Shown here: positions 3,824 through 5,302 of the stretch, piece after piece | How positions within the stretch are numbered: the stretch's first letter is position 1 | How the letters are laid out: every line of letters begins with the position of its first letter | Sequence record: OK272490.1 | DNA: 64,000 nt | Direction: 5' to 3' (one strand) | Source: Escherichia phage JLBYU32 | Translations under genes and position numbers: made by a program | The notes under the pieces: model-generated | The model's database searches: none | Told to the model about the DNA's origin: nothing | What the model saw: only the letters and a program-made list of their open reading frames with translations

Positions 3824-3900
3824 GCACCTATAGCCCAACTGGTGGAGGCAGCAGACTTAGAATCTGCTCAGTGTGAGTTCGAATCTCTCTAGGTGTACCA
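3824..3900 (+). tRNA. tRNA with TAG anticodon (Leu-decoding) but short variable arm
   Basis: Acceptor gcaccta/taggtgt, anticodon arm gcaga-cttagaa-tctgc, T-loop ttcgaat, CCA encoded; 77 nt. Confidence 0.55.
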
Positions 3901-3907
3901 AATTAAT

Positions 3908-3983
3908 GCAGGTGTAGCAAAATGGTTATGCGGCTGACTCTTAATCAGTAAGACGATGGGTTCAATTCCCTCCACCTGTACCA
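3908..3983 (+). tRNA. tRNA-Lys (anticodon CTT)
   Basis: Acceptor gcaggtg/cacctgt, anticodon arm gctga-ctcttaa-tcagt, T-loop ttcaatt, CCA encoded. Confidence 0.6.
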
Positions 3984-3989
3984 AACATT

Positions 3990-4065
3990 GGGGTCATAGT
4001 TTATATGGTTAAAATTCGAGTTTTGCAAACTTGGGAACTGAGTTCAATTCTCAGTGACTCCACCA
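3990..4065 (+). tRNA. tRNA-Ala (anticodon TGC)
   Basis: Acceptor ggggtca/tgactcc, anticodon arm cgagt-tttgcaa-acttg, T-arm ctgag-ttcaatt-ctcag, CCA encoded. Confidence 0.6.
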
Positions 4066-4071
4066 ATTAGT

Positions 4072-4146
4072 GCATCCATAGTTTAAACGGGAAAATTACA
4101 GTCTTCCAAACTGAGGTTGAGGGTTCGATTCCCTCTGGATGCTCCA
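4072..4146 (+). tRNA. tRNA-Gly (anticodon TCC)
   Basis: Acceptor gcatcca/tggatgc, anticodon loop cttccaa, T-arm gaggg-ttcgatt-ccctc, CCA encoded. Confidence 0.6.
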
Positions 4147-4153
4147 AATTAAT

Positions 4154-4229
4154 GCTCCTATCGTATAATTGGCTATTACGGTTGCCTTGTAAGCAACTTA
4201 TCAGGGTTCGAATCCTTGTGGGAGCACCA
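4154..4229 (+). tRNA. tRNA-Thr (anticodon TGT)
   Basis: Acceptor gctccta/tgggagc, anticodon arm gttgc-cttgtaa-gcaac, T-arm caggg-ttcgaat-ccttg, CCA encoded. Confidence 0.65.
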
Positions 4230-4232
4230 ATT

Positions 4233-4315
4233 CAGAGGTCAAGTGAAAGACCGCTTTGAGTCAACTGAAGACCGTAACAAATTCCACGGAGTTGAGTTAG
4301 CGGCACAACTCCAGA
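4233..4315 (+). ncRNA. structured spacer element (nested hairpins) between tRNA genes
   Basis: Outer inverted repeat agaggtc/gacctct enclosing perfect hairpin ggagttg...caactcc; no tRNA features. Confidence 0.3.
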
Positions 4316-4325
4316 CCTCTTTCAT

Positions 4326-4400
4326 ACTCGCTTAGTTTATATGGTAAAACATCACCCTTACAAGATGAAGAAAAAGGTTCAAGTCCTTTAGTGAGTACCA
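4326..4400 (+). tRNA. tRNA-Val (anticodon TAC)
   Basis: Acceptor actcgct/agtgagt, T-arm aaagg-ttcaagt-ccttt, anticodon loop cttacaa (one stem mismatch), CCA encoded. Confidence 0.5.
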
Positions 4401-4401
4401 T

Positions 4402-4479
4402 GTTCCAGTATCCCAATTGGCAGAGGATGCAAGCTCAAACCTTGTACTAGTGACGGTTCGAATCCGTCTTGGAACACCA
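4402..4479 (+). tRNA. tRNA with CAA anticodon (Leu-decoding), short variable arm, Leu-like D-loop
   Basis: Acceptor gttccag/ttggaac, D-loop ccaattggcagag, anticodon arm gcaag-ctcaaac-cttgt, T-arm gacgg-ttcgaat-ccgtc, CCA encoded. Confidence 0.5.
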
Positions 4480-4484
4480 ATTTT

Positions 4485-4560
4485 GCAGGATTAGTTCAAA
4501 TGGAAAGAGCAACAGTCTACGAAGCTGTTAATAGGGGTTCGAATCCCTTATCCTGCGCCA
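4485..4560 (+). tRNA. tRNA-Arg (anticodon ACG)
   Basis: Acceptor gcaggat/atcctgc, anticodon arm acagt-ctacgaa-gctgt, T-arm agggg-ttcgaat-ccctt, CCA encoded. Confidence 0.65.
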
Positions 4561-4579
4561 ATTTAAAGAGGCTATTTAG

Positions 4580-5137
4580 ATGAGATATTTGAAGTATGCT
4601 TCATGGATTTTCTTAGCTTTGTTAGAGCCATTTGCAGCAATCTTAGCAGTTATCTTAGCACCTTTTGTAGTTCCATTCTACAGTGAGAAGAAAGGACACT
4701 TACCTTTCGGGTTCAGATGGATGGAGACATATGACAACCCAATTGATGGTGATGAAGGTCACGTTAAAAGATGGGCTAATATTAGATGGATTGGTAAACT
4801 AGGTGTCTACATGCAAAGAGTCGGATGGCTCTGGAGAAACAAAGCTTATAACTTCTCTTACCATGTATTAGGAAGAGATGTAAAAGATGTTACTAAGTGG
4901 AAAGGTAATATCAACGTAAGTTCTGACCCCGAAGATAATCAGACAGGTTATCTCCTAATGTGGAACAGTAATGCTTGGGGATTATTCGCTTTTATCCCAT
5001 CAATTAAAATCTTTGGTAAACAATTTTACTGGAGAATTTATATTGGATGGAAACTAAAAAGTGTTGTCCCAGAAGAAAGAGCATTCTCAAGGGAAAGAGT
5101 TATGTTGGCATTCTTTATTCATCCACTGAGAAAGTAA
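4580..5137 (+). CDS. hypothetical membrane protein embedded in tRNA array
   Basis: 185 aa ORF with hydrophobic N-terminal segment; SD-like aaagagg 8 nt upstream of ATG. Confidence 0.55.
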   Translation: MRYLKYASWIFLALLEPFAAILAVILAPFVVPFYSEKKGHLPFGFRWMETYDNPIDGDEGHVKRWANIRWIGKLGVYMQRVGWLWRNKAYNFSYHVLGRDVKDVTKWKGNINVSSDPEDNQTGYLLMWNSNAWGLFAFIPSIKIFGKQFYWRIYIGWKLKSVVPEERAFSRERVMLAFFIHPLRK

Positions 5138-5145
5138 AGATTTAA

Positions 5146-5221
5146 AGGGGATTAGTTTACAAGGTTAAAACCTCGGTCTTTGAAATCGAAGAAGTTGGTT
5201 CAATTCCAACATCCCCCGCCA
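5146..5221 (+). tRNA. tRNA-Gln (anticodon TTG)
   Basis: Acceptor aggggat/atccccc (1-72 mismatch), anticodon arm tcggt-ctttgaa-atcga, T-arm gttgg-ttcaatt-ccaac, CCA encoded. Confidence 0.55.
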
Positions 5222-5223
5222 AT

Positions 5224-5302
5224 GCTCCATTACTCCAATTGGCAGAGAGGCCAGACTTAAAATCTGTGTTATGTATCGGTTCGAATCCGATATGGAGTAC
5301 CA
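5224..5302 (+). tRNA. tRNA with TAA anticodon (Leu-decoding), short variable arm, Leu-like D-loop
   Basis: Acceptor gctccat/atggagt, D-loop caattggcaga, anticodon arm ccaga-cttaaaa-tctgt, T-arm atcgg-ttcgaat-ccgat, CCA encoded. Confidence 0.5.

Follow-up and report, generated by a model that had tools for sequence, protein, structure and literature searches.

Three leucine tRNA genes with short variable regions

Three transfer RNA (tRNA) genes with leucine anticodons were analysed in a stretch of 64,000 nucleotides (nt) from Escherichia phage JLBYU32 (OK272490.1), hereafter called the window. They lie on the forward (+) strand at 3824-3900 (anticodon UAG), 4402-4479 (CAA) and 5224-5302 (UAA). 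ARAGORN reproduced exactly these coordinates and anticodons (TAG, CAA and TAA in the DNA), which had been given in a preliminary description of the same DNA. In the textbook view, every bacterial tRNA-Leu has a long extra arm. The documented bacterial exception so far is one Streptomyces tRNA (PMC6614811). The three genes of the window are type I bacterial tRNA-Leu, which do without this arm, a kind that is known but little appreciated. They are already labelled tRNA-Leu in public records, and a biochemical precedent exists; what is of note is the frequency of such genes in phages, and their presence with hosts whose leucyl-tRNA synthetase (LeuRS) was reported not to charge type I tRNAs.

By its sequence, the window is assigned to Felixounavirus, as a Felix O1-like myovirus. 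The segment from 3400 to 5700 shares 99.1% identity with Escherichia phage vB_EcoM_LMP34 and matches 312 phage records, chiefly labelled Escherichia, Salmonella, Shigella, Citrobacter or Felixounavirus.

Each gene was found by ARAGORN, by Rfam and by a covariance model of type I tRNA-Leu (R1, described below), and each was segmented manually. In the 77-nt tRNA-Leu(UAG), the acceptor stem is formed by 3824-3830 and 3890-3896 and begins with a G1-U72 pair. The D arm (3833-3849) has a 3-bp stem and the 11-nt loop CAACUGGUGGA, the anticodon occupies 3858-3860, and a 5-nt variable loop (UCAGU, 3868-3872) is followed by the T arm (3873-3889, with a U50-U64 mismatch), A73 at 3897 and CCA at 3898-3900. 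The 78-nt tRNA-Leu(CAA) has its acceptor stem at 4402-4408 and 4469-4475, the D arm at 4411-4427 (UCC-CAAUUGGCAGA-GGA), the anticodon at 4436-4438, a 6-nt variable loop (ACUAGU) at 4446-4451, the T arm at 4452-4468, A73 at 4476 and CCA at 4477-4479. The 79-nt tRNA-Leu(UAA) again begins with G1-U72 in an acceptor stem formed by 5224-5230 and 5292-5298; its D arm lies at 5233-5249 (CUC-CAAUUGGCAGA-GAG), the anticodon at 5258-5260, a 7-nt variable loop (GUUAUGU) at 5268-5274, the T arm at 5275-5291, A73 at 5299 and CCA at 5300-5302.

The anticodon starts at tRNA position 35 of each gene in the ARAGORN output, and each has A73 and a CCA end encoded in the genome. The variable regions read TCAGT, ACTAGT and GTTATGT in the cloverleaf strings and in the segmentation, which bears out the lengths of 77-79 nt and the variable regions of 5-7 nt in the preliminary description. 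Class II tRNAs have a variable region of more than 10 nt that forms a stem-loop; with 5, 6 and 7 nt, the three Leu tRNAs lie outside this definition. All conserved tertiary nucleotides (U8, A14, G18G19, U33, U54-U55-C56 and A58) were found. The Rfam model RF00005 scored 57.2 bits for the UAG, 43.6 for the CAA and 47.5 for the UAA tRNA (E = 1e-10 to 7e-7), all above its gathering threshold of 29 bits.

The preliminary description had allowed that automated folding might move an anticodon or reveal a long arm that had been missed. The placement of the anticodons was unchanged, and an overlooked long arm was ruled out, since ARAGORN, Rfam and Infernal alignments agree that the anticodon and T stems are only 5-7 nt apart. 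Minimum free energy (MFE) folding did not separate the three AT-rich tRNAs from shuffled sequences (z = 0.19, -1.54 and -1.59), and the MFE structure was a cloverleaf for only one of the three. These z-scores are uninformative; the evidence is drawn from covariance models and comparison, not from thermodynamics.

The anticodon loops were compared to those of the E. coli counterparts, from which they differ at positions 32, 37 and 38. They read CUUAGAA (UAG, 3856-3862), CUCAAAC (CAA, 4434-4440) and CUUAAAA (UAA, 5256-5262), against UUUAGGU, UUCAAAA and UUUAAAA, respectively, in E. coli. The tRNA-Leu(UAG) has A37 in the phage and G37, the m1G37 site, in the host, and C38 of tRNA-Leu(CAA) disrupts the A36-A37-A38 motif. 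This motif is used by MiaA. According to PMC9976931, it is also a recognition determinant of the 2'-O-methyltransferase TrmL. Anticodon-loop departures were remarked on for phage Sf14 too (PMC12482277).

Leucine identity elements of the three tRNAs

A segment alignment to five E. coli K-12 tRNA-Leu (leuZ, leuW, leuX, leuU and leuV) placed the D arm of the phage tRNAs in the same register. Common to both groups are a 3-bp D stem, an 11-nt D loop, A14, A15 and G18G19 (loop consensus CAAYUGGYRGA in the phage and RAAUYGGUAGA in E. coli), together with a non-Watson-Crick 13-22 pair, U48 at the end of the variable region, U54, A58 and A73. The D loop caattggcaga, noted earlier for two of the genes, is that of the CAA and UAA tRNAs; the UAG tRNA has caactggtgga. 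In E. coli, leuZ and leuU likewise have the G1-U72 pair seen in two of the three phage tRNAs. The E. coli genes leuZ(UAA), leuX(CAA) and leuW(UAG) have the same anticodons as the phage tRNAs, whereas their variable arm of 13-15 nt and G9 stand against 5-7 nt and A9 in the phage. Outside the arm and the anticodon, identity between phage and E. coli tRNA-Leu is only 42-61%.

Recognition by E. coli LeuRS depends on A73, A14, A15-U48, the position of G18G19, A20a and the D/T elbow. The enzyme ignores the anticodon and the sequence and fold of the long arm, and arm-less variants of E. coli tRNA-Leu stay active (PMC9976931; PMC6614811). This identity set goes back to Asahara 1993/1998, Tocchini-Valentini 2000 and Larkin 2002, as cited in these two papers. 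U8, A14, A15, U48 and A73 are present in all three tRNAs of the window. The preliminary description had suggested a comparison of identity elements at position 73 and around position 20: A73 is found in all three, A20a in the CAA and UAA tRNAs, and the UAG tRNA departs from the pattern with G at 20a. The unpaired nucleotide 47n, which belongs to the base of a long arm, and the nucleotides 47f-47i, which contact the C-terminal domain of LeuRS, are absent with the arm.

The model R1 was built from 75 unique type I tRNA-Leu genes that are singletons in bacterial genomes, mostly of Actinomycetota, and it includes no phage sequence. It scored 79.0 bits for the UAG, 74.3 for the CAA and 72.2 for the UAA tRNA (E about 1e-19 to 1e-21). 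The best score among the other 22 tRNAs of the array in which the three genes lie was 49.8 bits, a margin of at least 22 bits. Elsewhere, the highest score of a non-Leu tRNA was 62.9 bits, and the scores of E. coli class II tRNA-Leu lay at 49-59 bits. The type I tRNA-Leu of other phage isolates scored 53-87 bits, and R1 was weak on two further Leu genes called by ARAGORN or GenBank, one in PPSC2 (45 bits) and one in cr111_1 (54 bits).

Misassigned isotypes or decoys had been named as alternatives in the preliminary description; no support for either was found in the sequences. If the isotype were misassigned, another synthetase would charge the arm-less tRNAs, and infection would bring a partial recoding of UUR and CUA codons. 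LeuRS is blind to the anticodon, and leucine would not be enforced there. The related phage Sf14 carries three Leu tRNAs with the same anticodons and array order; the tRNAscan-SE isotype models ranked Leu first for all three, with scores barely above those of Ile2 and Lys and with Arg also near (PMC12482277). Against recoding stand the Leu-type D arm, A15-U48 and A73, which are all there, and the R1 margin over every non-Leu tRNA of the array. The close relatives in Actinomycetota are the sole type I CAA gene beside a conserved neighbour, and the one of Streptomyces coelicolor accepts leucine. The phage proteins are homologous to standard-code proteins, as in the Pfam matches of the terminase. 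A switch of isotype is thus highly improbable. The remaining proposal of the preliminary description, unusual phage Leu tRNAs, is supported by the D arm, A15/U48, A73, the R1 margin and the isotype ranking in Sf14.

Type I tRNA-Leu in other phages

BLAST searches with single tRNAs returned gap-free, that is arm-less, matches annotated as tRNA-Leu in unrelated phage isolates, and several of these were verified by ARAGORN, GenBank annotation or R1. Aeromonas phage AhP_Mru1 (Demerecviridae) has three tRNA-Leu of 77 nt beside long-arm tRNA-Ser of 85 and 90 nt, and Lactobacillus phage LpeD (Herelleviridae) has tRNA-Leu of 74-77 nt beside a long-arm tRNA-Ser of 90 nt. In Cronobacter phage CR8 (Vequintavirinae), tRNA-Leu of 74 and 75 nt accompany long-arm tRNA-Tyr (85 nt) and tRNA-Ser (84 and 92 nt). 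Pseudomonas phage PPSC2 (Otagovirus) combines tRNA-Leu of 77 and 78 nt with long-arm tRNA-Ser of 88 and 89 nt and tRNA-Tyr of 85 nt, and the crAss-like phage cr111_1 (Crassvirales) combines tRNA-Leu of 75 and 78 nt with long-arm tRNA-Ser of 87 nt and tRNA-Tyr of 86 nt. Vibrio phage F86 (unclassified) gave three R1 matches of 74 nt to the discriminator. Additional single-tRNA matches were found in Mycobacterium, Streptomyces, Gordonia, Bacillus and Enterococcus phages. Arm-less tRNA-Leu is therefore not a peculiarity of one isolate; it is routine in phage tRNA arrays, also in classic lineages of coliphages and Salmonella phages that serve for typing and in therapy.

IMG/VR was searched with a pattern that requires the Leu D loop and a YAR anticodon with the T loop not far behind, which gave at least 120 contigs and a biased sample. 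Among the matches listed, 188 of 228 tRNA-Leu had a variable region of 7 nt or less. An unbiased sample of viral contigs was chosen solely by a tRNA-Arg(UCU) pattern, and its 46 tRNA-Leu comprised 7 of type I (15%), 2 intermediates (11 nt) and 37 with a long arm; classes were counted by variable-loop length, and three 81-nt genes have 11-nt variable regions. The length of the variable loop was bimodal, with 5 nt on one side, 12-17 nt on the other and few between. Within the type I family, loops of 5 nt (n = 157) predominated over those of 6 nt (n = 20) and 7 nt (n = 7).

The tRNA-Leu(UAG) of phage T5 (T5t10, 11625-11709) is likewise encoded by a coliphage in a large array, and its amber derivative suppresses according to a GenBank note. 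Unlike the window tRNA-Leu(UAG), it is 85 nt long and of a reduced class II form, in which the variable region of about 12-13 nt still forms a short stem. Like T5t10, tRNA-Leu genes at the IMG/VR loci L150 and L169 have variable regions of intermediate length (11-13 nt) that form hardly any stem or none, and such genes may be transitional between class II and type I. In the open-access literature, no paper was found that describes type I tRNA-Leu in phages, and the study of Sf14 tRNAs nowhere mentions the variable arm (PMC12482277).

Cellular relatives and origin

The same Leu pattern was searched in GTDB, where the matches listed were mostly single genes in Actinomycetota (72 UAA and 42 CAA). 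The type I CAA genes of Actinomycetota adjoin a conserved response-regulator/ANTAR gene in at least 22-23 loci of many genera, and this shared neighbour marks them as vertically inherited core genes. Type I tRNA-Leu(UAA) singletons were also syntenic across genera, with a common neighbour in at least 20 loci, and type I tRNA-Leu is not confined to the CAA isoacceptor described in S. coelicolor. A few contigs of metagenome-assembled genomes (Acidobacteriota, Planctomycetota and Elusimicrobiales) held large arrays or several isoacceptors of type I tRNA-Leu.

Positions 8-25 of the window tRNA-Leu(CAA), UAUCCCAAUUGGCAGAGGA, which comprise U8-A9 and the D arm, are identical in the type I tRNA-Leu(CAA) of Rhodococcus and Bifidobacterium. 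The UAG tRNA of the window, the only one that fitted the comparison frame, shares 77-80% identity with other type I tRNA-Leu. Recent capture of a host tRNA-Leu followed by deletion of its arm was ruled out, with 42-61% identity to E. coli tRNA-Leu against the 77-80% within type I (UAG). The nearest neighbour was type I for 203 of 214 type I tRNAs and class II for 32 of 46 class II tRNAs. By these sequence comparisons, the two classes of Leu tRNA form separate, if imperfect, clusters; the approximately 70 informative positions are too few to resolve a tree or to tell a single origin from repeated loss of the arm.

A tRNA-Leu(TAG) with a short variable loop, unlike the chromosomal isoacceptor, was described in a mycobacterial tRNA cluster by Behra et al. 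2019 (PMC6582537), and it is probably the same kind of gene. In contrast to the phage genes, it lies on a bacterial chromosome, in an array with an HNH endonuclease gene; it was given one sentence only, and no link to phages of other phyla was drawn (PMC6582537).

We consider it probable that the three genes encode working type I leucine tRNAs. They would not be host genes that recently lost the arm, but members of an old, horizontally spread family that is chromosomal in Actinomycetota and present in many phages. The statement in the preliminary description that bacterial tRNA-Leu is class II holds for E. coli and not universally, as type I is a core gene in Actinomycetota and frequent in phages. 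Therefore, these tRNAs are unusual for an enterobacterial cell, not for a phage.

Conservation of the phage genes

In one common frame, 126 unique phage type I tRNA-Leu had standard pairs at 98.8% of stem positions, compared to 59% after shuffling. This figure is somewhat inflated, which counts against our reading, since ARAGORN itself selects cloverleaves. Most stem pairs in this set occurred as 3-6 pair types. A73, U48 and U8 were invariant, and A15 was constant in the pattern-selected sequences.

In 215 of 263 matching phage records (Ounavirinae), identity of the tRNA-Leu(UAA) is 99% or more, and it is 100% in nearly all matches listed. The surrounding 2.3 kb reached at least 99% identity in only 3 of 312 records. 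Between the window and Moogle, the array is 84-90% identical and the Leu genes 94.8-98.7%, and every change in the Leu genes falls in a loop or at a pair that was already mismatched.

Codon demand and proposed function

The guanine plus cytosine content of the phage genome is 39.5%. Among 1368 leucine codons in 61 open reading frames (ORFs), UUA accounted for 27.3%, UUG for 12.4% and CUA for 11.5%, and the three phage anticodons directly cover 51% of the phage Leu codons. The remaining shares were CUU 27.9%, CUC 6.1% and CUG 14.8%. CUG is the dominant Leu codon in E. coli. In E. coli K-12, the UAA, CAA and UAG isoacceptors are single-copy, whereas CAG has at least three gene copies (leuQPV). 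The phage tRNAs therefore duplicate exactly the minor Leu decoders of the host.

Most likely, the three tRNAs serve UUA, UUG and CUA, which are common codons in this AT-rich phage. Transcription of the array together with its neighbours would be followed by processing, and the CCA ends are already encoded. Host LeuRS, which reads neither the anticodon nor the long arm, would then charge the three tRNAs with leucine. The anticodons UAA, CAA and UAG would read UUA/UUG, UUG and CUA, respectively, and UAG would also read other CUN codons if U34 were modified as in the host. In this way, the phage tRNAs may supplement the three single-copy minor isoacceptors of the host and aid phage translation.

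Charging by the host synthetase

The type I tRNA-Leu(CAA) of S. coelicolor is charged by its own LeuRS (ScoLeuRS), and deletion of its gene was not achievable (Fan et al. 2019, PMC6614811). ScoLeuRS was called the sole prokaryotic LeuRS able to charge both types of tRNA-Leu, and a 5-nt variable loop was the minimum for good activity of type I tRNA-Leu (PMC6614811). The S. coelicolor tRNA, with a loop of 5 nt, resembles the phage tRNAs in its short variable loop, A73, U8-A14 and G18G19, and both coexist with class II tRNAs in one cytoplasm. Its sequence is outside the R1 set, for which relatives of other genera were used. It has C48, whereas the phage tRNAs have U48 with A15. The leucine-specific domain of ScoLeuRS is specialised, and the enzyme makes no use of A73. 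In addition, S. coelicolor has one type I among four class II tRNA-Leu, whereas the phage has type I only, in three isoacceptors, and its host is E. coli or Salmonella.

Two further systems were compared. Engineered E. coli tRNA-Leu of arm-less or minimalist design was charged if A73 and the D/T contacts were intact (Larkin 2002; Asahara 1993, 1998; as summarised in PMC9976931). These were laboratory constructs made from E. coli tRNA-Leu, whereas the phage genes are natural. Animal mitochondrial tRNA-Leu(UUR) is type I like the phage tRNAs, and A73 and A14 are its identity elements (PMC9976931). It differs from them in its loose, reduced structure and in a dedicated mitochondrial LeuRS, and no evidence of sequence kinship between the two was found.

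Charging by enterobacterial LeuRS would follow from the identity elements, and several observations weigh against it. E. coli LeuRS (EcLeuRS) failed to charge the S. coelicolor tRNA-Leu(CAA) at all and was described as charging type II only; its leucine-specific domain favours large variable regions, and its C-terminal domain contacts the arm nucleotides 47f-47i in the crystal structure (PMC6614811). This negative result is softened, not removed, because the S. coelicolor tRNA has C48 and lacks the A15-U48 of the phage tRNAs. In the window, tRNA-Leu(UAG) has G at 20a (3843-3844; UGGA compared to UAGA in Salmonella phage HMD-P8) and the U50-U64 mismatch, which it has in common with Moogle; both may reduce its activity. 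The loops of the CAA and UAA tRNAs (6 and 7 nt) exceed the 5-nt mode of the family. Position 20a is A in every other Felixounavirus match; because none of these exceeds 98.7% identity to the window tRNA-Leu(UAG), the change from A to G appears private to this genome; either a mutation in this phage or an error in sequencing could account for it.

If these points prevailed, the three tRNAs would be poor substrates or non-substrates of enterobacterial LeuRS. They would then be passengers of a mobile array from phages of other hosts, or would have an uncharged role as decoys or as competitors for processing or modification. The in vitro failure of EcLeuRS and its preference for large variable regions fit this explanation. 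No type I relative was matched in 5,426 complete E. coli genomes, a search in which 28-Gb E-values are harsh for a 79-nt query and distant copies could escape; the host itself would thus make no use of this architecture. Genes have been lost or rearranged in relatives, as in the chimera of phage FG1m described below, and some GenBank records annotate two tRNA-Leu only. On the other hand, hundreds of Ounavirinae genomes conserve the Leu genes beyond the flanking DNA, and the E. coli identity elements apart from the arm are retained, save A20a in the UAG tRNA. The CCA is encoded and the matching codons are heavily used. The architecture is kept with compensatory changes in several independent groups of gammaproteobacterial phages. 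Poor or absent charging, in either form, is an improbable explanation.

Similarly doubtful is a reading in which E. coli and Salmonella LeuRS are unable to charge type I tRNAs, in line with the one published test, and the Felix O1-like and other gammaproteobacterial phages, under strong selection, keep the complete arm-less set by other means. One possibility would be an undescribed phage factor that alters the specificity of LeuRS or charges the tRNAs by another route. The other would be a non-translational role, as a decoy or shield against tRNA-directed defences. In a milder variant of this reading, the arm-less design may be a phage adaptation that protects Leu tRNAs from a host nuclease directed at the arm.

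The outcome matters in either direction. If E. coli LeuRS charges natural type I tRNA-Leu, its stated specificity would have to be revised, and A15-U48 would be indicated as the switch; if it does not, these phages do something unexpected. The result bears on the prediction of phage tRNA function, on isotype calling by annotation pipelines and on the design of compact or orthogonal leucine tRNAs.

Absence of the arm in tRNA-Leu only

The three genes belong to a 25-gene tRNA array on the + strand (1577-6497; ARAGORN and Rfam). ARAGORN also called three tRNAs with long variable arms in it, all on the + strand: tRNA-Tyr(GUA) of 88 nt (2070-2157), tRNA-Ser(UGA) of 90 nt (3478-3567) and tRNA-Ser(GCU) of 93 nt (6325-6417). 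Loss of the arm in the array is confined to Leu; Tyr and both Ser tRNAs stay long. The same was seen in IMG/VR. Among the matches listed in the pattern-selected set, 106 of 107 tRNA-Ser and 50 of 52 tRNA-Tyr had a long arm. In the unbiased sample, a loop of 7 nt or less was found in 0 of 18 tRNA-Ser and 0 of 11 tRNA-Tyr, with the long arm in all 18 tRNA-Ser and in 10 tRNA-Tyr, and one intermediate tRNA-Tyr. The long arm contributes to recognition by bacterial tyrosyl-tRNA synthetase (TyrRS). Its size is the main identity element for seryl-tRNA synthetase (SerRS; PMC9976931). Loss of the arm may be tolerated in Leu only because LeuRS can do without it, while SerRS and bacterial TyrRS would need it.

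An alternative, which supplements the reading as functional leucine tRNAs and does not replace it, is that absence of the arm was itself selected. In one version, such a tRNA would be portable: it would never be mistaken by SerRS or TyrRS, would need A73 and the core only, and would survive transfer between phages of different phyla. In another version, it would escape nucleases or toxins of the host or of rivals that recognise class II tRNAs or cut the arm. The restriction of the loss to Leu, the role of arm size for SerRS and the bimodal loop lengths with few intermediates are consistent with selection. So is the recurrence of the UAG/CAA/UAA trio in phages of Enterobacteria, Aeromonas and Lactobacillus, with 1-3 type I isoacceptors in Pseudomonas, Cronobacter, Vibrio and gut crAss-like phages. 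Human SLFN11 and SLFN12 are precedents for selectivity towards long-arm or class II tRNAs. M. tuberculosis MenT3 is described as markedly preferring tRNA-Ser (PMC11541572), and the differences from the host at anticodon-loop positions 32, 37 and 38 follow a pattern of nuclease evasion as proposed in PMC10264068.

Other observations make this alternative rather unlikely. In the unbiased sample, 37 of 46 phage Leu tRNAs still have a long arm, and the one studied bacterial Schlafen cleaves tRNAs such as those for Lys, Met and Ala in the anticodon arm and is not directed at class II tRNAs. We know of no bacterial nuclease specific for the tRNA-Leu arm, and none, nor a defence system aimed at this arm or at class II tRNAs, was found in the literature. 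Type I tRNA-Leu of Actinomycetota is an ordinary core gene, and therefore no conflict is needed to explain its existence.

Genomic surroundings and further observations

The gene order of the array matches that of Moogle, and the same order was listed for Sf14 (PMC12482277). Spacers between tRNAs are often 1-9 nt, which suggests co-transcription and processing of the array. Two ORFs of DUF families are interspersed within it. Downstream, the array is closely followed by the terminase and structural-gene module, which begins with the terminase large subunit (6929-8545). Promoter-like pattern matches were found at 1430-1458, 1521-1550 and 2924-2952, and a terminator-like match at 6662-6679, with no enrichment over shuffled sequences.

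Directly upstream of the array, an ORF at 71-1411 (+) encodes a DUF2828/DUF7788 protein (phrog_850, 'RNA-binding protein'). A gene labelled 'RNA-binding protein' lies at the equivalent position in Moogle and FG1m, and a functional link between this protein and the tRNAs is possible.

A tRNA-like element was found at 3157-3238 (+), with 31.2 bits for the Rfam tRNA model (E-value mode) and 22.3 bits for R1. ARAGORN made no call there, whether introns were allowed or not. The element has a 7-bp acceptor stem (CGGGGCG/CGCCUCG), an encoded CCA, a normal T arm and an Arg UCU anticodon stem-loop (GCUGU-CUUCUAA-ACAGC). About 5 nt stand in place of the D arm, and the anticodon and T stems are separated by about 22 nt. 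At this site, the tRNA-Arg(TCT) of Moogle is an ordinary one of 77 nt, which is not alignable with the window element. The odd form is conserved at 95% or more in approximately 170 Felixounavirus records, mostly without annotation.

Salmonella phage FG1m has a chimeric tRNA-Leu at 5999-6076, with its 5' part from Leu(CAA), its 3' part from Leu(UAA) and the joint in the T-loop sequence GGTTCGAATCCG that both have in common. A tRNA-Arg, an ORF, a tRNA-Gln and the 5' part of Leu(UAA) are deleted between them. The acceptor stem of the chimera is not fully paired, and FG1m also has a non-orthologous type I tRNA-Leu(UAG).

Other unusual tRNAs were called by ARAGORN in the compared phages. In LpeD, these were a 92-nt tRNA-Ile(TAT) at 4296-4387 and a tRNA with a four-base anticodon (tttg) at 5574-5645, and in AhP_Mru1 a tRNA with a UCA (opal-reading) anticodon at 796-869. 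Among the matches listed for the IMG/VR loci, 10 of 58 tRNA-Ile calls were at least 82 nt long, and five calls had a CUA anticodon ('Pyl').

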